From the IMG/VR virus record IMGVR_UViG_3300024518_003383, positions 1 to 62,400 of that record: a DNA stretch of 62,400 nucleotides. The stretch is one strand, 5' to 3'. The notes under the pieces were generated by a model. It was given only the letters and a program-made list of their open reading frames with translations. It was not told where the DNA came from and made no database searches. Below, one piece after another: positions 2,928-44,264 of the stretch; position 1 is the stretch's first letter; each line of letters starts with the position of its first letter. A program made the translations under genes and the position numbers. This stretch comes from a virus. Taxonomy: Duplodnaviria > Caudoviricetes.

Positions 2928-2978
2928 ATCCACGCAACGTTGCCCATTCACCCCCCCCCCCACACGAAAGCCGACCCC

Positions 2979-3830
2979 ATGACTATCAAAACAGGCCCCG
3001 CCGCATTCACGGACGTTCGCATCGTCGAAGACCTCGCCGAAGCCGACTATCACGCCCACGAGGATCTCTCGTCGACGAAGCTTCGCAAGTTCATGTCCTC
3101 GCCTCAGGAGTATTACGCGATCCACGAAGCGGAGACGATCGAGCCGCCGAAGAAGACCGCCGCGATGGCCTTCGGGACGCTCGTCCATGAACTGGTCTTT
3201 GAACCTTCGGCCGGACGCTACGCAATCGGTCCGAACGTAGGCAAGCGCACGAAGGCGTGGGCGAAGTTCGAGATGGACTGCGCTCGCGATGGTCGCTATG
3301 GCGTGAGCGAAGACGACCACGAGCGCGCCCGGACTTGCGTCGATTCACTACAGGCAAACGACATCGCGCGCATGCTTCTCTGGGAAGCGAACGGGGCGAC
3401 GGAAGAGACGGTCTTTGCTACCCACGAAGAGACCGGGATCAAGGTCCGTGCAAAGCTCGACCGGCGACTGGTGGGGGACGTATCGGCGATCGGAGACCTG
3501 AAGACCGCCGTCATGTGGCGGCCGTCTGAGTTCCCCCGCGCGATGTTGAATGGGGGATACGATATCCAGATCGCCCTGTATCACGACCTCGCCGCTGCGC
3601 TTCGTCAAGTCGAGTCGATGGACGCGTTCTTCGTGGTCGTCAATCCCAACCCGCCTCACGAAGTCGTGAGCATGCAAGTCGGGATGGCGACGATGCTCGC
3701 TGGCCGCGACAAGTACGAGAGAGGACTCCGCGACTTCGCAGCGTGCAAGGCGTCCGGTGACTGGCGTTGCAGGGAATCCCGCGAAGTGGTCCAGGTCGAC
3801 TTGCCCGTGTGGGCCCTGAAGAACGATTGA
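2979..3830 (+). CDS. RecE/exonuclease VIII-like PD-(D/E)XK nuclease (DUF3799-like)
   Basis: YH..LSSTKL, AMAFGTLVH, KVRAKLD, IGDLKT and YDIQIALY motifs. Confidence 0.85.
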   Translation: MTIKTGPAAFTDVRIVEDLAEADYHAHEDLSSTKLRKFMSSPQEYYAIHEAETIEPPKKTAAMAFGTLVHELVFEPSAGRYAIGPNVGKRTKAWAKFEMDCARDGRYGVSEDDHERARTCVDSLQANDIARMLLWEANGATEETVFATHEETGIKVRAKLDRRLVGDVSAIGDLKTAVMWRPSEFPRAMLNGGYDIQIALYHDLAAALRQVESMDAFFVVVNPNPPHEVVSMQVGMATMLAGRDKYERGLRDFAACKASGDWRCRESREVVQVDLPVWALKND

Positions 3831-3866
3831 GAACAACCCCGAACCGAACGAACGAAAGCCAACCCC

Positions 3867-5150
3867 ATGAGCAGCAAGATCATCCGACTCGACATCCTGA
3901 ACTTCAAAAAAATCACCGCCGTGCATATCGAGCCGAAGGGGTCGACCGTCATCGTCGCGGGGAAAAACAAGCAGGGGAAGTCGACAGTTCTCGACGCTAT
4001 CCAGGCCGCACTCGAAGGCCGCAAGTCCCTACCCGAAGACCCGATCCGCCATGGGGCACGCAAGGCGGAGATCGTCCTGGATATCGGGGACGTTACGGTG
4101 AGCCGCACCTTCACGAAGAAGGGGACGAAGCTCGAAGTCCGTGGGGCCAACGGCAAGATCGCAAGCCCCCAGGCCGCGCTCGACTCGCTCACACAATCGC
4201 TCACCTTCGACCCCCTCGCATTCCAGCGGATGGAATCGAAGGAGCGGGCGCGAGTCCTCCGCGAACTCGCGGGGCTCGACACCAGCGAAGAGGAAGCGAA
4301 GATCGCGGAGACCATGGAGACGCGTCGAGCCGTCAAGCGCGAGGCGAAGGCGCTCGACGCGAAGGCGGGTGCAGGCGCACCGCATCCCGGCGCGCCACTC
4401 CAGAAGACGCCGATGTCTGAGGTACTCGCGCGGCTCGACGAAGCGACCGCGAGCCAGCGGGCTGCACACGAAGCGCAGGAGGTAGTCCGCAAGCGAAGCG
4501 GCAAGGCGCTGGAGTCTCGCCAGACCGTCGAGAAGATCGAAGCGCAGATCGAGCGATTGCAAGCCCGGCTGGAAGAGTGGACCGCCGCGAGGACGAAGGA
4601 GGAAGAGGCGGTGCGATGTGCTGTCGCCGAAGCCGAAACGCTCGAAGCCGCGAGCAGGGTTCACGACCACGACGACATCCGGCAGGAACTCGACACCCTC
4701 GAAGATACGAACGCGAAGGTCGAAGCGAATCACAAACACGAAGAACTCGTCGCGGAGCATCGAGCGAAGGAAGACGAGGTCGACCGGTTGACGGAGACGA
4801 TCGACGAACTGCGCGAGGCGGTGTCCGCCAAGATCGAGGCGGCATCATTCCCCGTCGATGGGCTCGCGGTTGACGATGACGGGGTGGTCTTCGACGGCGT
4901 CCCCTTCGAGCAGGCCAGCGGAGCGGAGCGCCTGAAGGTGAGCGCAGCGATCGGGCTCGCGCTGAATCCCGATCTCCGGATCCTTCTAATCCGGGACGGG
5001 AGCTTGCTCGACGACGACAGCATGGCCGCGCTCGAAGTCTTCGCCGAAGAGAACGACGCGCAGGTATGGATCGAGTGTGTGGGGCACCGCGAGGGCGCTG
5101 CGATCGAGATGGTCGACGGACACGCGTCGGACGATGGCGACGAGTTCTAG
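3867..5150 (+). CDS. SMC/SbcC(Rad50)-like ATPase
   Basis: Walker A GKNKQGKST, long coiled coil, ASGAE signature, LLIRDG Walker B. Confidence 0.85.
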   Translation: MSSKIIRLDILNFKKITAVHIEPKGSTVIVAGKNKQGKSTVLDAIQAALEGRKSLPEDPIRHGARKAEIVLDIGDVTVSRTFTKKGTKLEVRGANGKIASPQAALDSLTQSLTFDPLAFQRMESKERARVLRELAGLDTSEEEAKIAETMETRRAVKREAKALDAKAGAGAPHPGAPLQKTPMSEVLARLDEATASQRAAHEAQEVVRKRSGKALESRQTVEKIEAQIERLQARLEEWTAARTKEEEAVRCAVAEAETLEAASRVHDHDDIRQELDTLEDTNAKVEANHKHEELVAEHRAKEDEVDRLTETIDELREAVSAKIEAASFPVDGLAVDDDGVVFDGVPFEQASGAERLKVSAAIGLALNPDLRILLIRDGSLLDDDSMAALEVFAEENDAQVWIECVGHREGAAIEMVDGHASDDGDEF

Positions 5151-5153
5151 GCC

Positions 5154-5168
5154 TTGACACTCCGTCAA
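5154..5168. promoter_or_regulatory. Operator TTGAC-N5-GTCAA / -35 box
   Basis: TTGACACTCCGTCAA in the intergenic gap. Confidence 0.75.
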
Positions 5169-5219
5169 ATGAACGGGACGCTCTTCGTCCGACAACCCCA
5201 ACACAAGAAAGCCAACCCC

Positions 5220-6290
5220 ATGAACGACCAATACCAAGAGACGACGCAAGCCGGAACCGAGATCCAAGTTATCCCCGCCACAGCATTGCAGGAGGTCACA
5301 CGCTCGGAGATCGAGCAGCAAGTCGACACGGCTCGCAAGTACCCTCGCATGGTGTCGCGCTGTCGTGATAACGCGCTAGGCCTTGCGACGATGGACCAGG
5401 AAATCGCGGCGCAGTGCTTCTATTCGATCCCGCGCGGCGGGAAGAAGATCGAAGGGCCGAGTGTGAGGCTCGCGGAGATCCTCGGATCGTCCTGGACAAA
5501 TCTTCGCTATGGCTCGCGCGTCGTCGAAGTCGGGGCAAGCGTCGTGACTGCGCAGGGCGTGTGCCACGACTTGGAAACGAACGTGGCGATAACGGTCGAA
5601 GTGCGGCGGAACATCCTAGACAAACGAGGGAACCGATACGGGCAGGACATGATCACCGTAACGGCGCAAGCGGCGATGTCTATCGCCTTGCGGAACGCGA
5701 TCTTCAAGGTGATCCCCCGCGCCATGTGGGAAGGGATCTACCGCGAGGCCAGGTCCGCCTCGCTCGGGAAAGGGACCACGGAACAAAAGCGCGCGAGCGT
5801 TCTCGACTGGTTTGGACGGCGGAAGGTTACGGCCGAGCAGGTATGCGAACTCGCCGGCGTCCGGGCCGTCGACGATCTCGATCTCGACCGGCTTATCACG
5901 CTCCGCGGCGTTACGACTGCCGTCCGCGACGGAGACACCACACTGGCGGCCCTGCTCGCGCAAGCTGCCGGGCACGGCGAAGGCAAATCCACGTTATCGG
6001 ACGCGCTCGCGGAGATGAAAAGAGCGAAGGCCGCGGCGGCCGCGACGGAGACGGAGGGCGCCCCCGAGCCGCACGACCCCGCACAAGCGGCGAAGGCCCC
6101 GGAACTCACGAGCGCGCCCGCCGATGCGGAAAGCCCCGTAGAATCGACGCCAGCCCCTCAGAGCACGCAAGGCGAAGAGGTGCCCCCGCACGACCCGGAT
6201 ACCGGCGAAGTCCTGGACACGCCAGCACCGGACCCGGCAGACGAAGACGAGTATACCGACCCGGGGCCACCGGCCGGGGAGGGATTCTAG
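5220..6290 (+). CDS. Putative single-strand annealing/recombination protein
   Basis: ARKYPR..CFYSIPRGGKKIEGPSVRLAE phage family seen next to RecE; acidic disordered tail. Confidence 0.55.
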   Translation: MNDQYQETTQAGTEIQVIPATALQEVTRSEIEQQVDTARKYPRMVSRCRDNALGLATMDQEIAAQCFYSIPRGGKKIEGPSVRLAEILGSSWTNLRYGSRVVEVGASVVTAQGVCHDLETNVAITVEVRRNILDKRGNRYGQDMITVTAQAAMSIALRNAIFKVIPRAMWEGIYREARSASLGKGTTEQKRASVLDWFGRRKVTAEQVCELAGVRAVDDLDLDRLITLRGVTTAVRDGDTTLAALLAQAAGHGEGKSTLSDALAEMKRAKAAAAATETEGAPEPHDPAQAAKAPELTSAPADAESPVESTPAPQSTQGEEVPPHDPDTGEVLDTPAPDPADEDEYTDPGPPAGEGF

Positions 6291-6291
6291 G

Positions 6292-6546
6292 ATGGCGGTC
6301 GACCCCGAAGCCACGGTCACGATCCGGATAGTCGACCTCGTGGCGCTCGTTGACGACGCCAGCACGCGGGCGGAGGTCCGCGGCGCTCCCCCCGGCTTCG
6401 AGGACGTCCGCGCGAGGACCATGCTCCGCCGGGTATGCAACGAACTCGCGGGGCTTGCGGGGGACGTGGCGAAACGAAACGAGCGTGGCGTCCACCTCGC
6501 GCGCGAGCATGTGGCGACCATGCTCGCCAGCCTTGCGGACGACTGA
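6292..6546 (+). CDS. Hypothetical protein
   Basis: ORF packed between its neighbours. Confidence 0.6.
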   Translation: MAVDPEATVTIRIVDLVALVDDASTRAEVRGAPPGFEDVRARTMLRRVCNELAGLAGDVAKRNERGVHLAREHVATMLASLADD

Positions 6547-6592
6547 GGCGGACGTTTACGTGCCACACAACACGCGAAGGAGACTCGACCCC

Positions 6593-7249
6593 ATGAAAGC
6601 GACCACCACAGTACTCGCGGCGGCCCTGTTTGCTGGACCACTGCAGGCGGCGGAGACGGAAAAACACGATACGCCGATCGAAGAACTCGACACGGACACC
6701 GTGCTGCGCTCCGGGCTGACCCACGCGATCGAACGACGCAAGCGGATCCCGTGGCATGAGAAACGCGGGGAGGTCGTCCACTGGGAAGTGTGCCGCAAGT
6801 CGCCGGGCGGGTGTGCGGTCCACATCGAGGCGATCGTGGATTACATCGTCGACGCGTCCGAAGCTCACGAGGTGGACCCCTACGTGCTCGCGTCCATCGT
6901 GTGGACGGAGTCCAGATACCAACCCTATGCAACGGGCAAGGCTGGAGAGATGGGCATAGTCCAGATCCACCCGAGCAACCGCCACGGGTTGCAATGGATG
7001 CGCAAGGGTAGGGAGGGCGAGCGATACCGAAAGACCTGCAGGAAGCAGGTGGGCCAGTGTCAACACGAGGTGGCGCAGCACGGCGCGGGCATACTATCGC
7101 GGTACGCCGCCCGGTGCGGGAGCATCGAGGGCGGCCTGGCGGCATACAACACGGGCAGGTGTGACAGCACGGCGGGCGCGAAGTATGCCACCCGGGTGCT
7201 GCGACTTGCTGGCGACTTGAGACACGAAGTCGAAGGAGGGTCGGCGTAG
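6593..7249 (+). CDS. Secreted SLT lytic transglycosylase
   Basis: Signal-like MKATTTVLAAALFAGPLQA; catalytic TES, GIVQI and AAYNTG motifs. Confidence 0.85.
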   Translation: MKATTTVLAAALFAGPLQAAETEKHDTPIEELDTDTVLRSGLTHAIERRKRIPWHEKRGEVVHWEVCRKSPGGCAVHIEAIVDYIVDASEAHEVDPYVLASIVWTESRYQPYATGKAGEMGIVQIHPSNRHGLQWMRKGREGERYRKTCRKQVGQCQHEVAQHGAGILSRYAARCGSIEGGLAAYNTGRCDSTAGAKYATRVLRLAGDLRHEVEGGSA

Positions 7250-7250
7250 G

Positions 7251-7832
7251 ATGGCGGGTGCAGGCATTGACCGGGGGCCTGCACCCGCCGGCGTCCTCTC
7301 CATCGACCCCGCGAGCAAGTGCGGGTGGGCGATGTGGACCGGCGGCCGACTATTCCGGCTCGGGACGTGGAAGCTCTCCAGCGGGAAGCCGCTCGAACTT
7401 CGCTTTCGCCAAGTAGCGAAGCACGTCGCGCGGGCCGTCGGAGAACTACAGCACGCAAGCGGCGGCCGCGTCGTCGTCGCGTTTGAGGAAGCCCCGTTCA
7501 ACACGACCGGCATCGACTCGACCATGTCCGCCTATGGACTGCGAGCCCTGCTCATGGTCACGTGTGCGGAGCAGCGGGTCCGCTACCTTCGGATCAACGT
7601 CAGCACGGCGAAGAAGAGCGCGACCGGATACGGCGACGCACACAAGGCGGAGATCATCGCCGCGATCTCCAAACGATTTTCGATCCCGAAACTGTCCGAC
7701 GATGAAGCCGACGCTGTCGCGGTTGGCATCGTAGCCCACGAGCGGTTGGGCCTAACACTCACAACCCCAGCAATCGAGCCGCTCCCCCGGTTGCCACGAC
7801 CACCGAAGAAGAAACGGAAGGCCAAACGATGA
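7251..7832 (+). CDS. RuvC-like Holliday junction resolvase
   Basis: SIDPASKCGWA, VAFEE, AKKSATGYG..HK and DDEADA. Confidence 0.85.
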   Translation: MAGAGIDRGPAPAGVLSIDPASKCGWAMWTGGRLFRLGTWKLSSGKPLELRFRQVAKHVARAVGELQHASGGRVVVAFEEAPFNTTGIDSTMSAYGLRALLMVTCAEQRVRYLRINVSTAKKSATGYGDAHKAEIIAAISKRFSIPKLSDDEADAVAVGIVAHERLGLTLTTPAIEPLPRLPRPPKKKRKAKR

Positions 7833-8626
7833 CGACGAAGAAGAAAACGAGCAAGCCAAAAGCCCCGAAGAAGAAAAGCGCGAAGAAGGAGTCCCGCAAG
7901 TCCAGGGCGTCGAAGGAAGAGAACGAACGCCAGGCGGATGTGTTGGCCGAAGTCGTGGACGCTGGCCACGGGGACTATACGGGCACGGTCGCGCCAGACG
8001 AGGACGGGCACGGGTTCATGGGCCGCGTGTATCGTGTCGAGCACGGTGGGGAGGTCCCCGCTCGTGGTCCGGAAGTCTACGCGACCGGCCTTGTCCCCAC
8101 GCGCGACGATGTCGAGACCTTGATCCGAGCGTGGACGAAGTCGCATTCCGAGCACCTCGCCGAAGTCGAGCGCGTTTCCAACAAGCTACGGGCGGAGACG
8201 TTCGAGTTCGTCAACTCGATCGAGTCGGAGATCATCGAAGAGGAAGGGAAGCTGGCAAAGTTGAAAGCCAAGACATCGGAGCACAAGGCGAACATCCAAG
8301 CCTTGCACACGACGCGACGAGAATACCTCGCACGCGCGAACGACCCGCAACTGGAATTCAGTTTCTCCGGGCTCGCACCTTCGGCCGTCGCACCGGAGCC
8401 GGAGAAAGACTCGCCCGAAGCCCCCACGGCGAATGATTCTCTGGTGGTGTTGACCCCGGCGAAGGCGTCGAAGTTGATCGCCGCGACAGCGGACGTTGAA
8501 ACGTTGGAAGCGTGGCGGTGCGTTGAACTAGACCAGGACGACGTCCGCGAGGACGTCCTGGGCGAGATTGACACGCGGATCGACGAGATAGCGATCAGCC
8601 GCGAGACGAACACCAACGTAAACTAG
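7829..8626 (+). CDS. Hypothetical protein (basic N-terminus, coiled coil)
   Basis: ATGA-coupled ORF. Confidence 0.7.
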   Translation: MTTKKKTSKPKAPKKKSAKKESRKSRASKEENERQADVLAEVVDAGHGDYTGTVAPDEDGHGFMGRVYRVEHGGEVPARGPEVYATGLVPTRDDVETLIRAWTKSHSEHLAEVERVSNKLRAETFEFVNSIESEIIEEEGKLAKLKAKTSEHKANIQALHTTRREYLARANDPQLEFSFSGLAPSAVAPEPEKDSPEAPTANDSLVVLTPAKASKLIAATADVETLEAWRCVELDQDDVREDVLGEIDTRIDEIAISRETNTNVN

Positions 8627-8650
8627 CAGAGAAGCACGAAAGCCAACCCC

Positions 8651-9721
8651 ATGAGCACGACCCCCTTCGACCCCCGCTTCCTCCCCTTCGACCAGCGCGC
8701 GGTGCTGGCCATCCTTCAAACAGACCCGAGCAACATCGCGGGGAGGATCCGGGTCGTCGGGACTACCGTCGACCTCGCGGCGAGGGCAATCGTCGGGGAC
8801 CCGATCGCCGTCCCCGCCTTCGGGCAACTGGTCCACGCGGGTGTCGTGTCCATCGACGGGGACGACATCGTGATCCCCCCGCCGATGCGCAACGGCTCGA
8901 ACGGTCGGAGCGCCGAAGCGTCGGAGCGGGCGGCAAGCTTGCGCGGCGCGATGGCGACGGCGCTCGCGGAACACCACCACGCCTTCACGGGTTGGGCGCT
9001 CGACTATGCGGTCGAGCGATGCGAGCAGGGCAGGGCCGATCCCGTGCTCGGGTCGTGCGAACCGGCAGACGCCGCGAAGTGTCTCGCCGGCGCTGTCAAG
9101 CATGCGCTAGCAGGGGCGCTCCATTGCAAGGTCTTCGAGATCTTCTCGAATAGGAACTGGCCCGAGACACAACGCCGATACCTAGGAAGGGCGACGGAGT
9201 CGAACTCGCCGCTCACGGTCGAAGACGTGCGACTGGTCGCGCGTTACTACATCGACACGCGGGCGCTACTGAAGGGGATCGCGGAAGACCCGGTCACGGA
9301 CGACTTTCGATCGGCGATCTTCGTGTTGGGCCGGAAGGGGTACAAGCCGGAACACTTCCGGACCGTAATCGACGCGAAGGTCCGCGAGGCCATGAAGGAC
9401 CCGAGCAAGGCGCGGTGGGTGAACTGGCCCACGATGTTCTCTCCAAAAAACTTCCCAAAGTCGCTGTCGATGGCCAACGCGATGCGGGCCGATGTCGAGC
9501 AGGAGAAACGAGCACGGGACCGCGAGCCGTCCGGTGAGGCCGCGAGCCGCGTCGACAATAGAGAACCCGAGTGGAAGGCACCGTGCGAGGTAGTCGAAGA
9601 AGAACCCCGGGAGGTCGACGCGTCCGCACTTGACGGGCTCGTCGGTGGTCTCGCCGCGGAGAAGTCGGCACCGAAGGCGATCACCCGGGCGTCCGTGCTC
9701 GATGGGGAGGGCGGACAGTGA
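8651..9721 (+). CDS. Putative replication initiator (Phg_2220_C-like domain)
   Basis: GYKPEHFRTVIDAKV...WVNWPTMFSPKNF resembles the conserved phage initiator C-terminal domain. Confidence 0.6.
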   Translation: MSTTPFDPRFLPFDQRAVLAILQTDPSNIAGRIRVVGTTVDLAARAIVGDPIAVPAFGQLVHAGVVSIDGDDIVIPPPMRNGSNGRSAEASERAASLRGAMATALAEHHHAFTGWALDYAVERCEQGRADPVLGSCEPADAAKCLAGAVKHALAGALHCKVFEIFSNRNWPETQRRYLGRATESNSPLTVEDVRLVARYYIDTRALLKGIAEDPVTDDFRSAIFVLGRKGYKPEHFRTVIDAKVREAMKDPSKARWVNWPTMFSPKNFPKSLSMANAMRADVEQEKRARDREPSGEAASRVDNREPEWKAPCEVVEEEPREVDASALDGLVGGLAAEKSAPKAITRASVLDGEGGQ

Positions 9722-9921
9722 CGACTCAGAGGGCGGTCTGGATTCAGTGCGACGGGTGCGAGATATCGCAGTCTCCGTGCGATTTGAGCGCAAGGACGCG
9801 AGCCCAGGCGGCGCTAACTTGCGAACCCGGATGGCGTCTTTACGTCATGGTCCCCGGACGCGAAAGGCCCGTCGACCTCTGCCCCGACTGTGCCGAGGAA
9901 GCGAAGGAGGGCGGACAGTGA
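9718..9921 (+). CDS. Small CxxC protein
   Basis: CDGC...CPDC; flanked by 17-bp direct repeats. Confidence 0.65.
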   Translation: MTTQRAVWIQCDGCEISQSPCDLSARTRAQAALTCEPGWRLYVMVPGRERPVDLCPDCAEEAKEGGQ

Positions 9922-10394
9922 CCGCATACCTAGTCAGGCCACCGGCCGACCGCGCGGACGTGAAGGGCGACCCGCTCGTCGACAGGCTAACAGCCTACGC
10001 GTGCGTTCTCGAACGCATCGAGGGCGAGTTGCGGTCCGCCTACTATCACAACAGGGGGAAGAAGAAGGCCAACCGCTTCGACGGGTTCTTCTTCTCCGGA
10101 GCGGACGGGTCCGTGTTGGCGACCTCACTCGGGGGCCGCGTCTATCAGGGCGGGCAGGTCGTGCAGCAGAGCGCGGGCGAATATATCCAGGTCCAGCGAG
10201 ACGCCGTCGTCTACCTGTACCGGTGCGCGGCGTGGGCTCGATTCCACATCGCAAACAAGCTGCACCGGGCTGGCTTCGACACAAGCCCGCCGCGCGTGCC
10301 CGACACCGAAGGATGTCCAAAGCGCGTTGCGGTGGCTTACGAAGCTTGCAAGCGGGCCGCGGAAGAAGAACTGGCCGCGGCCGGCTTCGTATGA
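9918..10394 (+). CDS. Hypothetical protein
   Basis: GGAGG RBS; GTGA overlap. Confidence 0.65.
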   Translation: MTAYLVRPPADRADVKGDPLVDRLTAYACVLERIEGELRSAYYHNRGKKKANRFDGFFFSGADGSVLATSLGGRVYQGGQVVQQSAGEYIQVQRDAVVYLYRCAAWARFHIANKLHRAGFDTSPPRVPDTEGCPKRVAVAYEACKRAAEEELAAAGFV

Positions 10395-10395
10395 T

Positions 10396-10424
10396 TTGAC
10401 GGTGCGTCAAGTCGGCGCTACTGT
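10396..10424 (+). promoter_or_regulatory. sigma70-type promoter TTGACG-N17-TACTGT with a TTGAC-N5-GTCAA operator
   Basis: Near-consensus hexamers, 17-bp spacer, intergenic. Confidence 0.75.
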
Positions 10425-10457
10425 CCGACTGCAACCCCAAACGGAAGAGCCAACCCC

Positions 10458-10670
10458 ATGAGCTTTGAAAAGTACCCCCTGCCCGCCGGCGCGGAGTGGG
10501 ACCCGGAAACTAACGCGGTTTACCTGAATCGGAAGCAGGACACCGTATTCACGTATCGCCTCGGCGGGCGAGTACACGTATCGGTGGCTTCCGCGGCCGT
10601 CTCCTGCTCCGTCGCCATCGACCACCGGATCGTCCTCCATGTCCTCGCCCGTGCTGGTGTGCTGACATGA
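10458..10670 (+). CDS. Hypothetical protein
   Basis: AGCCAACCCC-ATG start. Confidence 0.65.
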   Translation: MSFEKYPLPAGAEWDPETNAVYLNRKQDTVFTYRLGGRVHVSVASAAVSCSVAIDHRIVLHVLARAGVLT

Positions 10671-10725
10671 ACAAACCCGAGAACATCCCGACGGACCTAT
10701 TTGTCCGACAGTATCCGGGGAGCAC

Positions 10726-11001
10726 ATGAGCGCGAGCCCGATAGATACCGCGATCGGGAAGACCGTCCGGCAGGCCAGGCGGGAAGCGGAGTACACCCAG
10801 CGGGAACTCGCGGAGCGTATCGGCGTGGACCATTCCTTGATCTCCCTCATGGAGTCGGGACGGAGGACCATCGCCGCAGGGACGCTCTTCGAGATCGCGG
10901 ACGCGTGCGGGTGGAAGCCGTGGGTCTTCGTGTGGGTGGCCGCCAAGTATCTGAAGCGCCCGGACCGGCGCGACGTTGACCGATCTAAAATGAAGCCGTG
11001 A
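10726..11001 (+). CDS. XRE/Cro-C1 HTH regulator
   Basis: VRQARREAEYTQRELAERIGVDHSLISLMESGRR. Confidence 0.9.
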   Translation: MSASPIDTAIGKTVRQARREAEYTQRELAERIGVDHSLISLMESGRRTIAAGTLFEIADACGWKPWVFVWVAAKYLKRPDRRDVDRSKMKP

Positions 11002-11041
11002 CTGCGGCAAGCCAACCCCAAACAAACGAAAGCCCAACCCC

Positions 11042-11317
11042 ATGAGCAAACGAAAGCCAAGCCGACCCAACAGGGCGGCCCGACGCGCCGCGGATACGGC
11101 GGTACGGAAAGCGCTACGGCAGACAAGCAAGGCGCGCGGCCCGATGACGGACGCGCTCGTCGACGCGCTGCGAGACCTGAAGGGGTGGCCGGACCTCCCG
11201 CACGCCGACGCGTGCCGCATCCTGGCCACCGACGACGACGTGGCCCGCTCCGTCATCGACCACGCGAACAAACTAGGGAAACTCGACGGGAACTTCGAGG
11301 AAGCGGGGGCGTCATGA
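11042..11317 (+). CDS. Hypothetical protein
   Basis: Motif-preceded ATG; coupled to the next gene. Confidence 0.65.
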   Translation: MSKRKPSRPNRAARRAADTAVRKALRQTSKARGPMTDALVDALRDLKGWPDLPHADACRILATDDDVARSVIDHANKLGKLDGNFEEAGAS

Positions 11318-12138
11318 GCGGCGGCTATCTTCCCGGCATGGAACCGGACCCCGTCGACAACGAGCGCGATCGGGACCTGAACGTGGACCGCACACCTATC
11401 CCCGTGGCGTCGCAGATCTTGACGCGCGTTGCCGAAGTATATGGGCCAGAGGTGTTCGCCAACGTTATTGACGCGGGATGCGGCGAGGGCGGGTGGGGAC
11501 GTGCTCTCAGGCCGTTGGTGTGCGGATCCCAAAGCGTGGGCATGGACGTTCGCGAGGAAGCGATGGACCACGCGCGCCGGAACTACGACGCGGCACACCG
11601 GCTCGCGTTCAACGTCGACAACGCGCGCCGCGTGACGAAGGGAGTCACGGCCGTTATCGGGAACCCCCCATTCTCCGTCAAGGATGCGAGCGGGAAGAAG
11701 ACGACGCTCTTCCCGTCCTTCGTCCGCGATGCTGTCGCGGTCGTGGAGCCCGGGGGGATCGTTTGCTTCCTCGCGCTGGACGATCTCGGGCAACGCGGCG
11801 GGGCCACCCGCCGGCTGTTCTCCGAACTCCCGCCGAACGCATGTTTCCGGATCACGGGCGCCGTCGGTTTCCGCGGGCCCCACCGCGAGGACATCGACGG
11901 GAGCGGGTCCACGGACCAGCGATCCTATTGCGCGTGGGTATGGAAGGCGGACGGAGACGGCGGGACCGTGCCCGGTACCGTGTGCAGTCGCCACCTACTC
12001 ACGAGCGAGGACGACCCGAAGGAGGACGAAGCAAAACAAGCGAAGTTCCCGGTCCCCGGTTGGCACGCGGAGAACCTTCCCGAACTCCCGCTGGATTGCC
12101 GTCGGTGGATCCACATCCCGGGGACTGAAACACCATGA
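11314..12138 (+). CDS. DNA amino-methyltransferase (N6-adenine type)
   Basis: SAM motif DAGCGEG followed by catalytic NPPF. Confidence 0.8.
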   Translation: MSGGYLPGMEPDPVDNERDRDLNVDRTPIPVASQILTRVAEVYGPEVFANVIDAGCGEGGWGRALRPLVCGSQSVGMDVREEAMDHARRNYDAAHRLAFNVDNARRVTKGVTAVIGNPPFSVKDASGKKTTLFPSFVRDAVAVVEPGGIVCFLALDDLGQRGGATRRLFSELPPNACFRITGAVGFRGPHREDIDGSGSTDQRSYCAWVWKADGDGGTVPGTVCSRHLLTSEDDPKEDEAKQAKFPVPGWHAENLPELPLDCRRWIHIPGTETP

Positions 12139-12443
12139 GCAAGATCGACGAGATCAAGTCGCGGTCCGACGGGTGGCTAACGCCCGGCGGCGGCGATTCA
12201 TGGGAGCGGCCGAAGGACGACGCGGTCTTCCTCCTTCTCATGCTCCAGGCGCGGGTGTCGATGCTGCTCCAACTGAACAGCACGATCCCGGAACCGCACG
12301 ACCTATGCCCGAAGTGCGCGGGGTATATGTGGGGACGGCCGAGTCTCCCGGACGGTGCGAGGAATCACCACGGCGGGGTCCAAGACTACACGCGGCGGAT
12401 GTGCTCCGAGTGTGGACACATCCGAACGGAGCCGGAAGAATGA
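12135..12443 (+). CDS. Zinc-ribbon protein
   Basis: CPKC...CSECGH. Confidence 0.65.
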   Translation: MSKIDEIKSRSDGWLTPGGGDSWERPKDDAVFLLLMLQARVSMLLQLNSTIPEPHDLCPKCAGYMWGRPSLPDGARNHHGGVQDYTRRMCSECGHIRTEPEE

Positions 12444-12817
12444 GCACGCGAGAAGAACTCGAAGCGCTAGGCCGCCGCGCTGTCGCTTGCAAGGGGTGGC
12501 GGTGGATCGAGGGGACGATCGACACCAACGGGGACGTCGTCGCGGTCGCACTCGACAACGGATATGTGGAGATGGCGTCTGTAGCCCAACCCGACGGCGA
12601 GCGGTATCCGCCCGACTTCTCCATGGCGGCCTCGCGGGGTTGTCTTCTCGAACTCGTCCGCCAGGCATACGGAGATCCGTATATAGAAGCGCAGCCCGCG
12701 GTGGCTGAAGGGTTGTGGCTTTGGCGTGTGTCCATTCGAGGGGACTCGCGGCGCGACGACTTTTGGTATCCATCTGAAGCTGAGGCGCTCGTCGCAGCAC
12801 TAGAGGCCGCACCATGA
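12440..12817 (+). CDS. Hypothetical protein
   Basis: ATGA-coupled; ends SEAEALVAALEAAP. Confidence 0.7.
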   Translation: MSTREELEALGRRAVACKGWRWIEGTIDTNGDVVAVALDNGYVEMASVAQPDGERYPPDFSMAASRGCLLELVRQAYGDPYIEAQPAVAEGLWLWRVSIRGDSRRDDFWYPSEAEALVAALEAAP

Positions 12818-13044
12818 GCAGACCGAAGGCAGAACACGAGAACGACCGGAAACTATCGGCGCTCGCCGGCACGTTCGAGGAAGGGTCACACGCGGGCAAG
12901 GCCGAAGCCGTCGCGCTGTTTCTCGAAGCGCTCGACGAAGAAGGGGCCACGGTGGACACGCTCCGGGCCAGACTCCTTTCCTACGCTCGACGGCTTCGGC
13001 TTCGAGTGGCCAACCCTACACACCAGAAAGAGCCAACCCCATGA
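12814..13044 (+). CDS. Hypothetical protein
   Basis: ATGA-coupled. Confidence 0.6.
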   Translation: MSRPKAEHENDRKLSALAGTFEEGSHAGKAEAVALFLEALDEEGATVDTLRARLLSYARRLRLRVANPTHQKEPTP

Positions 13045-14126
13045 CACACGACGAACAACCTAGGAACGCGGTCGAAGCACTGAAGACGATCGCACACATG
13101 ACGAACGGCCACTTCAGCGTGCTGCACAAGGCAGACGGCGAGGCGGTCGCAGTGCTCGGGATCGCTATCGCGGACCACATCGAGTCAGGGGCCCCCCTGT
13201 TCTCCCGGCGCGTCAAGGTGTCCGGCTTCGTCCCTGGCGTTGACGACTCGACGGCGGACACCGTGAAGGCGAGCCCCGCCCGTCGAGCCCCGCGAACGGA
13301 AGAGGACACCAAACGCGAGGACTTGATCGCATTCGAGCATGAGATGCGGATGGTCCTCTTCAAACTGTCCAACGTCCGGATCGAGTGCCCTACATCGGAG
13401 GGGATCACGAAGGCACGGGAGAGCTTGGGTCGGGCACGCCTCGCGGTCGAGTCCTTCTACCAAAGCGAACCCCGCAAGGCCTCGCTCGATGTTCACGACG
13501 CGCGCGGCGTTGCGGCTATCGAAGCACTCCAAGGGCTCACAGGGAAGTTCGCCACGCTCGACTATAAAAACGACAGCCACAGCATAGAGGCGCTATCGGC
13601 GATCATCTACGCGAAACAAGACGCGATCCGACGCGATTGGGACTCCGCGCTCGCGTCCGCCCGGGACTACAGACAGAACATGGGAGACGCCGAAGCGGAG
13701 CACGCGAGACGGCTAGCCGTTCTACATGAGACGGTCGCACAAGCGATCGACGCCTTGACGGAGTGCGCCGGGTACGATGTCGACGCGCCGTCGGATCTGG
13801 AGAAGATCGCAGCGCTCCGCGATGTGGCCAAGCAGCGGATGGAACATCGCGTGGCGAAGGCGGTGAAGGACGCGCTCGAAGAGGCGAGGGAGAACGGAGA
13901 CGTGCCTACGCGGACGGTTGAAGATGCCGCGCAGGGAGGGGACCCCGGTGCGTTCGTTTCCGGGATGCGCAGGGCCGCCGTGCTCGTTGGCGAGACGATG
14001 CGCGAGAAACACATGAAGACGCGATGGCAGTCGACAGACCTTCGGGACATCGCCCGGATCCTCGTCACGGAGATCGATAAAGAAGCGCTGGGGTTCGCGG
14101 AGAAAGGGGCCGGCTCCGATGCGTGA
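13041..14126 (+). CDS. Hypothetical helical protein
   Basis: 361-aa ORF; motif-preceded ATG. Confidence 0.75.
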   Translation: MTHDEQPRNAVEALKTIAHMTNGHFSVLHKADGEAVAVLGIAIADHIESGAPLFSRRVKVSGFVPGVDDSTADTVKASPARRAPRTEEDTKREDLIAFEHEMRMVLFKLSNVRIECPTSEGITKARESLGRARLAVESFYQSEPRKASLDVHDARGVAAIEALQGLTGKFATLDYKNDSHSIEALSAIIYAKQDAIRRDWDSALASARDYRQNMGDAEAEHARRLAVLHETVAQAIDALTECAGYDVDAPSDLEKIAALRDVAKQRMEHRVAKAVKDALEEARENGDVPTRTVEDAAQGGDPGAFVSGMRRAAVLVGETMREKHMKTRWQSTDLRDIARILVTEIDKEALGFAEKGAGSDA

Positions 14127-14526
14127 GTGGAGCGGCCGCGCGGTTGAGTTCGTCTCGCGGGCGTCGGCGCATGTGTGCGCGCTGGCCTACGTCCGGCCCC
14201 AAGAAATGTACAGCAGCAGCCGACACCGACGCCACTCGCGGGCGCGGATGGTCGTCTGGTGGATACTCCGGGAGATCGGCATGTCCTACCCCAAGATCGG
14301 GGAGGCGTTCCGGAGACACCACACGACAGTTATCCATGGCGTGCGCGAGGTCGAAGAGTCGATCGCCCACGGCGGATGGGCGGCAGACGCTGTCGACCTC
14401 GTCTGCTCACAGGCCTTCGTCGGTTCTCCAGGCGTCGACCCTTACAGCGGCCCCGCGATGCTACTGCAGGACAGTGCCCCTACTTTCGACAATCTCGCGC
14501 GGGTGTCTCCGCGTGCTAGCATTTGA
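14119..14526 (+). CDS. Stand-alone DnaA C-terminal (domain IV) HTH protein
   Basis: ARMVVWWILREIGMSYPKIGEAFRRHHTTVIHGVREVE. Confidence 0.8.
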   Translation: MREWSGRAVEFVSRASAHVCALAYVRPQEMYSSSRHRRHSRARMVVWWILREIGMSYPKIGEAFRRHHTTVIHGVREVEESIAHGGWAADAVDLVCSQAFVGSPGVDPYSGPAMLLQDSAPTFDNLARVSPRASI

Positions 14527-14537
14527 CGGAGGGTCAA
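14523..14537. promoter_or_regulatory. Operator TTGAC-N5-GTCAA overlapping a GGAGG RBS
   Basis: TTGACGGAGGGTCAA directly after a TAGCAT -10-like box. Confidence 0.65.
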
Positions 14538-14540
14538 CCC

Positions 14541-14786
14541 ATGGGAGTTCACCGCGGAAAACTAAGGTGCTGCGAATGCAAACGCAGGCGGCAGACAACA
14601 ACGACGAGCAAGGGCCCGATGTGCAAGCCGTGCAGGACGGTGCTCGACGGGTCCGCCGCCATGAGCGACAAGGCCAGGATCAAGATCGAGCGAGAGAAAC
14701 TCGAAGCCATCGAGCGCAAGGACGCGGAGAACACCGCCCGCGCGCTCGATGCTCTGACCCGCAACCGTGAAGAGGTGTGCGGGTAG
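14541..14786 (+). CDS. Small CxxC protein
   Basis: CCEC...CKPC. Confidence 0.6.
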   Translation: MGVHRGKLRCCECKRRRQTTTTSKGPMCKPCRTVLDGSAAMSDKARIKIEREKLEAIERKDAENTARALDALTRNREEVCG

Positions 14787-14787
14787 C

Positions 14788-15270
14788 ATGCAACACGACC
14801 GGCAGGTGTCGCCCGGCGATTGCGTCGACCTCCTTCGCCCCGATCCTGAGGGCGACGAGGTCGCGTATCCGAACCGCGCGTTGTCTGTCGTCGTCTACAC
14901 GAAGACGGGTGGGTGGCTCGGGGGATGGGAGCAGCGGTACAAGGACTCGCGGCCAGACCTCGTTTGCTTCCGGCTCGGGTCACTGCCGGACGTTGTCGTC
15001 GCATGGGAGCGCGTCGCAGTCGAGCGCATCCACGACCACGCATCGCTCGGGTTGATCGTGTTCCACTTCAGCGCGCCCCGCTTCGAGTCTCCGGACTATC
15101 TCCATCCGTCGATGCAACGAAGGTTGCTCGCCTTCGACGATTCAACACAACGCGGGGACGTGAAACCCCGCAACGTCACGCGCCTTGGTCGTCCATTCAA
15201 GGACCCCGACGCACCCACCCAGGTCGACCTCTTCGGGTCGGCCGCAACCGAAGAGAAGCCAACCCCATGA
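14788..15270 (+). CDS. Hypothetical protein
   Basis: Packed ORF. Confidence 0.65.
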   Translation: MQHDRQVSPGDCVDLLRPDPEGDEVAYPNRALSVVVYTKTGGWLGGWEQRYKDSRPDLVCFRLGSLPDVVVAWERVAVERIHDHASLGLIVFHFSAPRFESPDYLHPSMQRRLLAFDDSTQRGDVKPRNVTRLGRPFKDPDAPTQVDLFGSAATEEKPTP

Positions 15271-31496: not shown

Positions 31497-31573
31497 GCCG
31501 GCAACACCACAGCACACCAACACCCAACGAAGAACACCAGCCGACCCAACCAACACCGTAGGAGATTTTCAGC

Positions 31574-32475: not shown

Positions 32476-32676
32476 ATGAGACCCGAGCCAACCCCAACAC
32501 CTTCCGGCGGACGAAGCACCGACACGATCGAGAGCAGCGCCGCCCCCCTTCTCCAACCCGTGACACTCACGCCACAACAGGAAGCCCGGGTCTATCACAG
32601 TCCGATCACCGGTTTCACGTGCGCCTGGATGACACTCAACGCGCACCAGTACGAGAGCACGAGGCCCACGCCATGA
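32476..32676 (+). CDS. Hypothetical protein
   Basis: GGGAG RBS; ATGA overlap. Confidence 0.5.
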   Translation: MRPEPTPTPSGGRSTDTIESSAAPLLQPVTLTPQQEARVYHSPITGFTCAWMTLNAHQYESTRPTP

Positions 32677-34983: not shown

Positions 34984-34985
34984 CC

Positions 34986-35252: not shown

Positions 35253-35310
35253 CCCGAGAGCCAACCCCGCAACCCGAGAGAACCGCCGAAGGCATAGGAG
35301 CTAACAGCAC

Positions 35311-36768
35311 ATGGCGATCGCATTCAACTTTATCAACGCGGACAACCGCGTCCCCGACATCCAGATCGAGTTCGATCCTTCTGGATCCAGTGTTCCACCA
35401 AGCAAACCGCACAAGGCGATCCTCATTGGGCAACGGACAAGCGCCGGCAGTGTCGCCGAAGGTGTCGTCAAGGGGGTGACCTCTGATCTTCAGGGCGACG
35501 ACTTCTTCGGCCAGGGGTCGATGCTCGCCGCTGAGATCCGAGCCTTCAGGTCAAAGGCCCCGGGGATCGCACTGTATGCGGTCGCGCTCGACGATGACGG
35601 TGCAGCCGTCAACGCGACGGGGACATTGACCATGACGGGCACGGCAACCGCGGCCGACATCATGAACTTCTGGATTCACCAGACTAGGATCCGCGTCGCC
35701 GTCGCTGTCGGCGACACCATGACGGTTGTTGTCGCTGCGCTTGCCGCCGCGATGCTCGAAGTGCCTGACCTGCAGGTTACGGGGGCGGCTGCACTTGGGG
35801 TGCTCACCTTGACCTCGCGCAACCCGGGCGAGGCCGCCAACGAGATCGACCTTCGCGTCCTGTACAACGACGACGAGAAGATCCCCGCGGGGTTGACCGC
35901 TGTTGTCGTGCCGATGGCCAGCGGTGCAGGCAACCCGGACGTCGGGATCGCACTTACTGCGATGGGCGGGTCGGAGACCTACGACACGATCGTCATGCCA
36001 TACCATGACGCCGCGAACCTCACCGCGATGGAGATCGAACTGGAAGCGCGATGGGGACCGGACAGGCAGAACGACGGGCTTTGCTTCACAGGTATCGTGG
36101 CCGACCACACGACAACGCAAACGCTCGGGGATTCCCGGAACTCCCACATGCTCGTTTTGCTCGGGTTCGGCCCGGTCCTGATGACCCCGTGGGAAGGGTC
36201 GTCCATCATCGCGGGCATTGACGCTGCGATGCCAAGCCCGGCTCGACCACGACAGCGCCGGGAGGTCACTGGCATGCTTCCGCCCGCAAGCGGGACGGAG
36301 TTCAACACCGCGGAACGCGAGCTTCTCCTACACGATGGAGTGTCTACCGTGCGCCCTGCCGCTGGTGGACGCATGCAGATCGAGCGCTTGATCACGATGC
36401 ACCAAGTAAACAGCAGCGGCTTCCAGACGATCGCGTACCTGAACGTCACGAAGGTTCGCACACTGTCCGTGCTCAGGTTCTCTATCCGGGCGTTCATTGC
36501 GAGCAAGTATCCGGACTACAACCTCGCGCCGAACGAAACCGAAGTGGCACCCGGAGCGGCAGTGGTCACGCCCAACACGATCAAGGCGGACCTCTTGGGC
36601 CTTTACGACTTCTTCGGCGACCAAGGTTGGGTGGTCGACAAGGCGAAGTTCAAGGAGGCGCTTCTGGTCGAGATCAACGACCTCGATCCGGACCGGTTGG
36701 ACGTGCTTCTCTATCCCACCGTCATCGGAGCGCTTCGCTTCATGGCTGGTCGAATGGTCTTCGCGTAA
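35311..36768 (+). CDS. Tail sheath (Mu gpL)
   Basis: RVP..IEFD, FGQGSMLA, PARPRQ, ERLIT and DRLD motifs. Confidence 0.95.
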   Translation: MAIAFNFINADNRVPDIQIEFDPSGSSVPPSKPHKAILIGQRTSAGSVAEGVVKGVTSDLQGDDFFGQGSMLAAEIRAFRSKAPGIALYAVALDDDGAAVNATGTLTMTGTATAADIMNFWIHQTRIRVAVAVGDTMTVVVAALAAAMLEVPDLQVTGAAALGVLTLTSRNPGEAANEIDLRVLYNDDEKIPAGLTAVVVPMASGAGNPDVGIALTAMGGSETYDTIVMPYHDAANLTAMEIELEARWGPDRQNDGLCFTGIVADHTTTQTLGDSRNSHMLVLLGFGPVLMTPWEGSSIIAGIDAAMPSPARPRQRREVTGMLPPASGTEFNTAERELLLHDGVSTVRPAAGGRMQIERLITMHQVNSSGFQTIAYLNVTKVRTLSVLRFSIRAFIASKYPDYNLAPNETEVAPGAAVVTPNTIKADLLGLYDFFGDQGWVVDKAKFKEALLVEINDLDPDRLDVLLYPTVIGALRFMAGRMVFA

Positions 36769-36801
36769 CCCCGAACACGGACAGGAAAGGAAGAGAATCA
36801 C

Positions 36802-37220: not shown

Positions 37221-37251
37221 GTGCGCCGGGTAGCGTGGCATGGTGTCGCCC

Positions 37252-37902
37252 ATGCAAACCGAAGAGCCAACCCCCACAACTGAAGAACCCGCGGACGAAC
37301 TCACCGAAGACACGCCGGGAGCGTTGAAGGTCGACGGGGACTTTCTCGTCTTCCCGCTGTCGGGGCCATGGGAGCGACCGCAAGCTACCGACCCGAAGGA
37401 ACTCAGGATCCGCCGGGACGTGTACGTCGAAGACGTCGCGGAGCGCGACTTCTACAAGGAACACCAGAAGCGAGCGTGGGCGACAGCTCTGATCGCCGGG
37501 CTGTCGAATGTGTCGGAGGGGATGCTTCGTCGCTGCTCGCACGGCGACAGCGACCGGATCATGCAACTCGCGGACGCGATGGAGAGGGCGACGATCCCGA
37601 GCGAGTTCCACGAAGAGGACGGCCGGACGAAGGTCATCATCTCCCGACCTCTTCGGGACGCGAGGACGGACAAGGAGAAGAAGGAGCAAGCGCCCGGTCA
37701 CATCTGGTGGCGGACACTGTCGAATCAGGATCTGATCCGCGCGGAAGACATGGACGACGGCCACTTCGGGCAGCAGATGCATCTAGTGGCCAACGTCGCA
37801 GGGGTCCCGGTGTCTGTCGTCAAGCGCTTGCACATCGCGGACTGGATCGCGCTGTCGGTGGTCATGGAGAACTACCGAAAAAAAGGTCAGGCCTCGTCGT
37901 AG
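37252..37902 (+). CDS. Tail assembly chaperone (Mu gp41-like, apparently two domains)
   Basis: Between tube and tape measure genes; LIAGLSNV..DS and LVANVAGV..ADW repeats; start could be 37240 or 37243. Confidence 0.75.
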   Translation: MQTEEPTPTTEEPADELTEDTPGALKVDGDFLVFPLSGPWERPQATDPKELRIRRDVYVEDVAERDFYKEHQKRAWATALIAGLSNVSEGMLRRCSHGDSDRIMQLADAMERATIPSEFHEEDGRTKVIISRPLRDARTDKEKKEQAPGHIWWRTLSNQDLIRAEDMDDGHFGQQMHLVANVAGVPVSVVKRLHIADWIALSVVMENYRKKGQASS

Positions 37903-42867: not shown

Positions 42868-42870
42868 CGC

Positions 42871-43623: not shown

Positions 43624-43706
43624 TAGGACGGATCCGGGCCGCCCGCATCGGGTCGAGCCGCGTCGATCCCCCGGTCTAGGGGAGGACGGGAGAAAAAATA
43701 ACGCCT

Positions 43707-43794
43707 GGTCCTGGCCCCGGACCACCCCTTGCGCGGGCGAATGCTGCTTTCCGCCGTGGTCCCCCTTGCGGACCGGGTTCGGCGAGCGCATTGT
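43707..43794 (+). promoter_or_regulatory. Two GGTCC-N7-GGACC operators plus a TTGCGG-N17-CATTGT promoter
   Basis: 19-bp identity to 1540-1558; ATG 7 nt after the -10 box. Confidence 0.75.
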
Positions 43795-43801
43795 TCTGTT
43801 C

Positions 43802-43993
43802 ATGTCCTGCCCCGCCAACCCCACCGACCCCCGCCGCTCCGTAGATTGCCCCGCCGATGTCTTGGCCGCCGATGATCTCGACTTGACTACCCTTGCGGGT
43901 CGGCAAGCTTTGGGGGAGTTGTTCCGCCGCGAGATCGTTGCAGGCAACGACCGCTCGCTGGAGTGGCTCGCGCTTCGACTCTTCATGGCCTAG
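43802..43993 (+). CDS. Hypothetical protein
   Basis: Leaderless ATG. Confidence 0.6.
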   Translation: MSCPANPTDPRRSVDCPADVLAADDLDLTTLAGRQALGELFRREIVAGNDRSLEWLALRLFMA

Positions 43994-44048
43994 CCCCGCC
44001 GCCCTATCGACCCCGGCCCCGCTGGTATCGCCGCGGGGCTTTCGGGTT

Positions 44049-44234
44049 GTGAGCACCTCAACGACATCGTCCCGCGCCGCCCTGTATCTCTACGCGAGCC
44101 TTGAGAACCTCGTGGTCATTTACACCTATTCCCACCTCCCATGGGGCGGACTGGTCCGCGAGCAGGAACGCCGGGCGCAGGGACAAGCAGACCGCGCCGT
44201 CCGCTTTGGTGGCCGTCCCCGCGCCCGCGTCTAA
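44049..44234 (+). CDS. Possible small protein
   Basis: Gap-filling ORF with a GTG start. Confidence 0.35.
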   Translation: MSTSTTSSRAALYLYASLENLVVIYTYSHLPWGGLVREQERRAQGQADRAVRFGGRPRARV

Positions 44235-44264
44235 CCCCCGCCCCAACACGAAGGAGCCAACCCC

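Follow-up and report, generated by a model that had tools for sequence, protein, structure and literature searches.

Two described systems are the nearest analogues of the element reported here, a ten-nucleotide motif, AGCCAACCCC, that recurs along the 62,400-bp virus record IMGVR_UViG_3300024518_003383 (hereafter the window, meaning the whole stretch of DNA that was analysed): the start-associated sequences (SASs) of the cluster K mycobacteriophages and the C/A-rich translational enhancers. As described by Pope et al. (2011, PMC3203893), an SAS is a 13-bp asymmetric repeat, present in 11-19 copies per genome and in one orientation, that lies 3-9 bp before the mostly ATG starts of non-structural genes; the sequence is shared by unrelated genes, is reported to be absent from the host, and in half of its copies has an upstream inverted repeat. 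In the subset termed ESAS this inverted repeat contains a promoter (PMC11373665), and papers from 2024-2025 still give the function of SASs as untested (PMC11373665, PMC12699233). We find that the motif of the window has a similar anatomy: it is a short asymmetric repeat with 15 exact copies in one orientation, is start-adjacent and ATG-preferring, is shared by unrelated genes, and has a TTGAC-N5-GTCAA palindrome upstream of four of the ten copies that abut a start codon. However, it fails two defining features of an SAS. The cluster K consensus GGGATAGGAGCCC is unrelated to the decamer, and SASs hold the Shine-Dalgarno (SD) core AGGAG, whereas the phage motif accompanies the absence of an SD. 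Further differences are that the decamer stands at a distance of exactly 0 where it abuts a start, that it is also found just inside leaderless-type genes and in the late region, and that its carrier is a seawater Mu-like myovirus. The placement in leaderless-type genes is an addition to the SAS plan, and by analogy the motif would work most like a C/A-rich enhancer.

Among these enhancers, ACA and C/A-rich elements are reported to stimulate initiation without needing a fixed position, and an ACAA repeat is credited with promoting initiation on mRNAs that have no SD (PMC3879156). Leadered as well as leaderless mRNAs are described as being enhanced by CA repeats that follow the start codon (PMC9031893, citing Martin-Farmer and Janssen 1999). 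When sites for fast translation were selected in a purified E. coli system, C-rich non-SD ribosome-binding sites formed the main class; the same report (Barendt et al. 2012, PMC3310771) mentions C-rich leaders in phages whose hosts have a high GC content. The phage element resembles the enhancers, and the targets of the small RNA GcvB, in being C/A-rich, G-poor, unstructured and located at the initiation region. In contrast, the known enhancers are degenerate, enterobacterial and mostly assist an SD, whereas the phage has one exact decamer repeated 15 times where the SD is missing, with a function that we infer. It is C-rich ahead of the AUG like the ribosome-display sites, which are pre-AUG regions of 18 nt; the authors of that work propose pairing with G-rich segments of 16S rRNA, whereas the decamer pairs with E. 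coli 16S no better than shuffled sequences do. Based on the data below, we propose with moderate confidence that AGCCAACCCC forms the stereotyped core of a C/A-rich element for translation starts that do not depend on an SD, and that this element would work on either side of the AUG. A preliminary description of this DNA had called the motif an undescribed SD-independent initiation signal or a translational regulator site; its association with starts lacking SD pairing holds, and "undescribed" has to be dropped since SASs, C-rich non-SD sites and CA enhancers have all been published. The motif would nonetheless be a second start-linked phage motif, unrelated to the SAS that has been known in one phage cluster since 2011, and its signature is cleaner: it appears to stand in for the SD rather than contain it, sits in a nearly structure-free C/A-rich tract, and occurs also in the first codons of leaderless-looking genes. 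It is thus a candidate for a rare natural example of a phage-private translation-start signal.

The record is a single contig of 64% G+C in which our own codon-usage gene finder predicts 92 genes, all on the + strand; the gene model and several start codons are our own curation rather than external annotation. PHROG matches include a large terminase, a portal protein, a Mu-like tail sheath and a tape-measure protein, as well as an SbcC-like ATPase and a ParB-like/DNA-methyltransferase fusion, and Pfam matches include a PD-(D/E)XK nuclease, RuvC, an SLT lysozyme domain and a sigma-70 region-4 protein. The phage also carries RecE/SSAP/RuvC-like recombination genes. It is a marine Mu-like myovirus: seawater metagenome runs contain the same DNA, and the closest sheath genes of named phages are at most 41% identical. 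The two ends of the record (1-3234 and 58747-62400) are copies of one module of about 3.5 kb, 78-96% identical with indels and cassette differences, which could reflect two alleles that were joined when a permuted genome was assembled, or a terminal duplication that is real and has diverged.

The exact decamer occurs 15 times, always on the + strand, against a mean of 0.05 and a maximum of 1 in 100 dinucleotide shuffles; none of the shuffles reached 15. Allowing up to one mismatch gives 24 matches (23 on the + strand, 1 on the - strand) where 3.43 are expected and the shuffle maximum is 8, and the sub-words are equally one-sided (AGCCAAC, 18 on the + strand versus 0; CCAACCCC, 20 versus 2). 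The total set is 15 exact copies and about eight variants. Ten exact copies lie in the first 23.4 kb (1-23.4 kb), four in the virion region (32486, 35259, 37265 and 44255) and one in the duplicated end. The preliminary description had placed all copies on the coding strand, put the chance expectation at well under one copy and tied the motif to translation starts; these claims are borne out, and the coordinates that it gave for exact copies are all correct. It had missed two second alleles, an exact copy at 59721 (allele of 984) and a variant at 62135 (allele of 2969).

Seven exact copies abut an ATG, six lie just inside genes and two lie further upstream, in leaders. An ATG follows directly in those seven cases (3857, 5210, 8641, 10448, 13031, 15257 and 44255), for which P = 2e-10 at an ATG frequency of 0.0121. 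Three variants also end at an ATG, namely AGCCGACCCC with one mismatch at 2969 and at 62135 and a form with one inserted C at 11031, which brings the abutting starts to ten, each with a motif-ATG distance of exactly 0. The base after the ATG is A in all ten compared to 35 of 75 other starts (p = 0.0013), and in six of the ten no other in-frame start codon lies between the upstream stop and the ATG. When starts were predicted blind to the motif, 11 of 15 exact copies lay within 60 nt of one, compared to a mean of 2.7 and at most 9 over 2000 random placements. With curated starts all 15 fall within -52 to +14, or +23 for the 37265 copy if GTG 37243 is used; this count is partly circular because five of those starts were picked with knowledge of the motif.

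The genes that begin at an abutting copy are diverse. The exact decamer followed by ATGA at 3857-3870 (+) starts the SbcC-like ATPase gene 3867-5150, where the ATG is the first in-frame start, the SD energy is +0.1 kcal/mol and the start is backed by homologue N-termini that align at residues 1-5. The same arrangement at 5210-5223 (+) starts gene 5220-6290, whose start is backed by an orthologue (L132) that begins at the aligned Met, and those at 8641-8654 (+) and 10448-10461 (+) start gene 8651-9721, with a weak Phg_2220_C match, and the 70-aa gene 10458-10670. At 13031-13044 (+) and 15257-15270 (+) the decamer and ATGA coincide with a stop/start overlap; in the former the upstream gene ends ...PTP* and gene 13041-14126 begins, and in the latter gene 15267-15608 begins. 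The copy at 44255-44268 (+) starts gene 44265-44699 and is the sole abutting copy that also has an SD (GAAGGAG). Among the variants, AGCCGACCCC with ATGA at 2969-2982 (+) starts the PD-(D/E)XK nuclease gene 2979-3830 and has its second allele at 62135-62148 (+). At 11010-11045 (+), an exact decamer in the leader (11010-11019) is followed by AGCCCAACCCC (11031-11041) abutting the ATGA of gene 11042-11317. The remaining leader copy, at 35259-35268 (+), lies 6 nt past the upstream stop and 52 nt before the tail-sheath ATG 35311, a start with its own SD. Looser variants named in the preliminary description fared unevenly: those at 2969 and 11031 do abut an ATG, GGTCAACCCC at 44769-44783 (+; 8 of 10 bases) is separated from ATG 44781 by AT and so stops 2 nt short, and those at 6583 (7 of 10 bases) and 14531 are weak and belong to starts with a normal SD. 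Separately, a one-mismatch copy, TGCCAACCCC, at 45965-45977 abuts the TTG that opens a 94-aa ORF (45975-46259), in a place where the gene model is unsure.

We find that the abutting starts lack the SD sites used elsewhere in the phage. Most of its genes have ordinary GGAG or GAAGG sites. The median duplex energy with the anti-SD core, measured over positions -21 to -1, is -0.05 kcal/mol for the ten abutting starts versus -6.4 for 75 motif-free starts (p = 6e-5), and -2.35 kcal/mol for the six starts with a decamer just downstream (p = 0.006). Only 1 of 10 abutting and 1 of 6 downstream starts have a core SD word, compared to 40 of 75 others. With a longer 16S tail the gap is narrower and still open (median -4.3 for abutting starts versus -7.4 for others, p = 0.005); a GAAAG that precedes the decamer could pair only with such a longer CUUUC tail. 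These regions also lack structure, with a mean 60-nt folding energy of -3.4 kcal/mol at abutting starts versus -14.6 at others (p = 4e-6). From -30 to -1 the abutting leaders are 35% A, 48% C, 14% G and 2% T, and the first 30 coding bases of the abutted genes are likewise A/C-rich. Aligned, the leaders give a consensus of about 30 nt (...CAAC..CCCCAACACA.GAAAGCCAACCCCATGA) with a pre-AUG portion of ...CCCCAACAC-GAAAG-CCAACCCC-AUG-A, and a second CAACCCC box is often present 9-16 nt upstream.

Several of these leaders are preceded by a promoter-like palindrome. Exact TTGAC-N5-GTCAA palindromes occur six times versus 1.2 expected and hold a -35-like hexamer, TTGACA or TTGACG; in four abutting cases (starts 2979, 5220, 10458 and 62145) the palindrome lies 52-57 nt upstream, at 2913-2927, 5154-5168, 10396-10410 and 62085-62099, respectively. 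Judging from the -35 and -10-like hexamers, the leader in these cases would be about 26-30 nt long and would begin near the upstream box. The fifth palindrome (14523-14543) shares positions with the SD and start of a Cys-rich, zinc-ribbon-like ORF of 81 aa (14541-14786), and the sixth lies at 29673, ahead of gene 29736. Three leaders in the virion region (31037-31076, 31534-31573 and 36762-36801, for starts 31077, 31574 and 36802) are also A/C-rich, for example ...CCCAACCAACACC..., and keep a normal SD; C/A-rich tracts may act as general enhancers in this phage system.

The copies inside genes follow a second architecture. In the preliminary description they figured as a loose extra; instead, the start codons of these genes sit 6 nt past a -10-like box, and the genes are probably leaderless. 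Of the six starts with an exact decamer at +7 to +23, five (978, 59715, 20009, 21312 and 37243) have TAnnnT exactly 6 nt upstream, for which P = 4e-13 at a frequency of 0.0023 per position; the five include two alleles of one gene, and 37243 was chosen among three adjacent start codons. It is because this box precedes the start codon by 6 nt that we read the in-gene copies as belonging to predicted leaderless mRNAs. At 966-993 (+) the unit consists of TATCGT, 6 nt, ATG 978 and the exact decamer at +7 (984-993) in the sigma-70 region-4 gene 978-1436, with its second allele at 59703-59730 (+; TATCGT, 6 nt, ATG 59715, decamer 59721-59730). At 19997-20031 (+) it consists of TACGTT, 6 nt, ATG 20009, a CCAACCC box at +4 and the exact decamer at +14 (20022-20031); at 21300-21328 (+), of TAGTGT, 6 nt, GTG 21312 and the exact decamer at +8 in the ParB-like/DNA methyltransferase fusion gene 21312-23387; and at 37231-37274 (+), of TAGCGT, 6 nt, GTG 37243 (alternative starts ATG 37240 and 37252) and the exact decamer 37265-37274. 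The sixth start (32476-32495, +) is the ATG of a small ORF, 32476-32676, with the exact decamer at +11, and has an SD (GGGGAG).

Looser variants of the motif follow three further starts (1585, 60322 and 43802), each 6-7 nt past a CATTGT box. At 1573-1607 (+), with a second occurrence at 60310-60344, CATTGT, 6 nt and GTG 1585 are followed by ...ACGAAAACAACCCCC and a CAACCCC at +17, and at 43790-43822 (+) CATTGT, 7 nt and ATG 43802, the start of a 63-aa ORF, are followed by CGCCAACCCC at +12. Another variant, AGCCAACCCA, lies at +12 from ATG 60571 (60571-60591, +), a start with an SD. The likeness to a leaderless mRNA is thus the -10 box a few bases ahead of the start codon at five of the six downstream-decamer starts; the difference is that other putative leaderless starts of the phage (26367, 46201, 52769, 54451 and also 37965), each with a well-placed -10-like box, lack the decamer. 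We know of no leaderless genes that require a shared downstream decamer. Two small ORFs were overlooked by the gene finder: 32476-32676 (66 aa) occupies the gap after a gene ending at 32461 and has an ATGA overlap with the next start, and 43802-43993 (63 aa) is preceded by a promoter-like TTGCGG-N17-CATTGT. Tandem hexamers, (GACGGC)n, occupy 19944-19997 just upstream of start 20009, and (GACGGA)n is found at 27618-27707 inside the portal gene.

Codon usage and allele comparison place the constraint at the nucleotide level, as the preliminary description had argued. The predicted proteome has seven PTP tripeptides, of which five are copies of the motif, located in the first ten or last three residues of their proteins. 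All five are encoded CCA-ACC-CCN, with a CCA that elsewhere accounts for just 10.5% of Pro codons, and the two internal PTPs use other codons. Between the alleles at the two ends of the record, which show cassette swaps behind conserved leaders, a block of 33 nt shows no difference, whereas its flanks differ at 31 of 177 positions (17.5%); the block spans the upstream stop, ATG 978 and the decamer. The probability of this block is about 0.001-0.002 for a window selected after seeing the data. Because the codons are rare and the 33-nt block is identical, we conclude that the nucleotides themselves are constrained. The companion claim that the in-gene copies fall in different frames needs amending: six in-gene or gene-end copies share the frame xAG CCA ACC CCN, which gives PTP, and two do read SQP. 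Beyond about 30 nt the flanks of most copies are unrelated. In four seawater DNA runs, contigs carry positions 2900-22899 with no listed difference within any decamer copy; this identity is uninformative, given a nearly clonal population and the chance that the record itself derives from some of these runs.

To what extent are these starts peculiar to this phage? The start of the SbcC-like gene could be placed in 108 orthologues among 160 loci from other phages and prophages, and 95 of the 108 have SD pairing stronger than -3 kcal/mol (median -6.95). Since these orthologues retain an ordinary SD, the SD-less start region of this gene in the window is derived. Loci L124, L132, L183 and L125 have SD-less A/C-rich leaders that lack the decamer. 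Of 80 IMG/VR loci with an SbcC-like gene (at most 44% identity), 78 are without an exact decamer and two have a single copy (L143 on the minus strand, L194 on the plus strand). The closest protein relatives are 54, 51 and 50% identical, and a search with the portal protein returned one locus at 32%. As a family of copies the motif was not found in any other contig reached. Among the matches listed, a 14-mer query of IMG/VR gave only single copies per locus, and a 17-mer gave six single, unrelated matches. A two-box pattern had 0 matches in IMG/VR and 61 in metagenomes; the latter are tandem repeats or lie in unrelated contigs, none matches the window by blastn, and tblastn gives just two weak methyltransferase matches. 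No close prophage was found in genome contigs, where the best matches were 40% identical (a Myxococcota MAG, metagenome-assembled genome, and an Acidobacteriota MAG) and 38% identical (Arthrobacter). In 301 sampled genomes of Myxococcota, the only phylum searched, the decamer followed by ATG turns up at 41 places in 40 genomes, with no genome having more than two. No RNA runs were listed among the sequencing runs that hold this DNA, and among the literature matches listed for the decamer string there was only unrelated human, mouse and parasite work.

Based on these results, we propose that a C/A-rich, G/U-poor, unstructured mRNA element lets about 20 genes start without an SD. On leadered mRNAs the element would fill the ten bases before the AUG, and on the putative leaderless mRNAs, with their -10 box 6 nt before the start codon, it would occupy the first codons. 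By analogy with the known enhancers and the C-rich non-SD sites, the small subunit, or the 70S ribosome on leaderless mRNAs, may be recruited to or held on an open C/A-rich landing site. An additional sequence-specific reader, from host or phage and either protein or RNA, may control the motif genes as a set; such a reader is suggested because ten letters are identical in 15 copies. If a reader exists, the phage would have a novel means of distinguishing its own mRNAs from host mRNAs, and if there is none, the element would still provide a compact natural SD-free start region for high-GC bacteria.

Several points weigh against this proposal. An enhancer defined by composition only leaves the letter-perfect identity of 15 copies unexplained. 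The abutting copy at 44265, the downstream copy at 32476 and the pre-sheath copy at 35259 accompany good SDs, and because of them the motif is not simply an SD replacement. Conservation over time is visible only between the two alleles inside the record, and the start codons 978, 11042, 32476, 37243 and 44265 rest on our own curation. The strand bias cannot separate a role in RNA from one in DNA because all genes are on one strand. Finally, C-rich leaders are reported to have done poorly in E. coli cells (PMC3310771).

Candidate readers were sought in the ribosome, in the phage transcripts and among the phage proteins. Pairing of the decamer with 16S rRNA, a check put forward in the preliminary description, came out negative, with a best duplex of -13.4 kcal/mol, where shuffled decamers averaged -13.0 and 39 of 100 were as good; the E. 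coli 16S (L344) served as a stand-in here, and the host's rRNA may differ. Five candidate-host genomes searched for 16S yielded partial 5' 16S only. The CCAACC of the motif is complementary to a GGUUGG near the rRNA 3' end, a stretch that we take to lie inside helix 45. For an antisense partner in the phage, the best + strand duplex with the 16-mer has an energy of -24.9 kcal/mol (1972 and 61147), which 1 of 30 shuffled 16-mers beat and which is not significant. The ASCH protein (16770-17237), proposed earlier as a candidate reader, gained no support in this role: it scores 18.8 bits against a Pfam cut-off of 21.2, has no NCBIfam match and falls in a PHROG family without known function. A methyltransferase at 11314-12138, considered as a ribosome-modifying enzyme, matches only generic SAM-methyltransferase models and lies far under every NCBIfam cut-off. 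A Pfam scan of 20 different window proteins, out of 92 predicted genes, revealed no RNA-binding domain.

Because composition alone does not explain the letter-perfect repetition, two readings that involve recognition of the exact letters keep some weight. The decamer may be the mRNA binding site of a sequence-specific regulator, either a protein that represses or activates translation or a G/U-rich small RNA, that switches the gene set, with the open SD-less context being secondary; T4 RegA is the model for a protein translational regulator of this kind. Such a site would account for the identity of the 15 copies, and the spread of positions from -10 to +23, all in or near the ribosome footprint, would be tolerated better by a blocker than by a recruiter of fixed geometry. 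The gene set consists mostly of early DNA-metabolism genes, and GcvB is reported to silence C/A-rich enhancer elements (PMC3879156), which supplies a precedent. Nevertheless, regulation alone leaves the translation of the SD-less genes unexplained, and no candidate emerged from the antisense search, the ASCH protein or the Pfam scan of 20 proteins; we regard this reading as the foremost alternative, and an unlikely one. Doubtful in our estimate is a private translation channel, in which a phage protein or RNA, or a phage-altered ribosome, would recognise AGCCAACCCC on either side of the AUG and drive or gate SD-independent initiation on leadered and leaderless mRNAs alike. If that were the case, about 20 genes would be translated by rules foreign to the host's mRNAs.

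Three further explanations are weaker. Stoperators of the cluster A mycobacteriophages are asymmetric sites of about 13 bp, many per genome and oriented with transcription near gene boundaries, that act on DNA through a repressor and block transcription. The phage sites are likewise asymmetric, oriented, dispersed and at gene boundaries, in early and late regions, and the phage encodes DNA-binding candidates in the sigma-70 region-4 protein and the ParB-like fusion; Pope et al. themselves contrast SASs with stoperators (PMC3203893). However, stoperators are neither fixed to a start codon nor linked to SD loss, and nothing would make a site on the DNA stop precisely at an ATG ten times or coincide with the loss of the SD. 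Orientation carries no weight where all genes are on one strand, and an integrase or repressor was not identified among the subset of genes scanned, so we judge it improbable that the decamer is an asymmetric DNA operator of a phage regulator. Passive copying is more improbable still. A start-region cassette could have spread with its genes by short-homology recombination, leaving an unselected decamer as its footprint, and the recombination module, the cassette swaps behind conserved leaders in the end alleles and the leader of about 30 nt common to several copies would fit. Yet most copies have flanks that are unrelated past those 30 nt, copies within coding sequence use a rare codon, an island stays conserved between alleles amid their divergence, and the SD is lost at just these genes. 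We give the least credence to the decamer as a compact promoter or RNA-processing signal that places the 5' end at the AUG and makes all motif genes leaderless. Zero spacing to the ATG in ten cases would suit a 5'-terminal AUG, and a leaderless-type architecture is used elsewhere in the phage. On the other hand, the stretch is G+C-rich and resembles no -10 element, the palindrome upstream of four abutting copies predicts a leader instead, cutting at copies downstream of a start codon would decapitate their own genes, and a phage RNA polymerase was not seen among the ten of the larger ORFs scanned.

A few observations outside the motif set deserve mention. An Rfam scan of the window returned a tRNA-like match at 21162-21249 as its sole result (39 bits; cut-off 29), and ARAGORN finds zero tRNAs in the whole record. 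On the minus strand of a 2561-bp metagenome contig (L231), A/C-rich leaders without an SD precede four genes in a row and in two of these cases end in CCAACCCC-ATG, and the leaders of two further contigs (L201 and L232) are like those of L231; these contigs have no proteins in common with the window. A/C-rich SD-less leaders may be a wider habit of some lineage or mobile element. In a related IMG/VR phage (L127), a unit of about 60 nt occurs in five copies (7122, 8544, 18264, 19823 and 21044) and consists of an A-rich tract, TTGACA, a spacer, TGTCACACTGTAACC and ATGATG; from its layout this unit looks like a repeated promoter that would fire at or next to the ATG.

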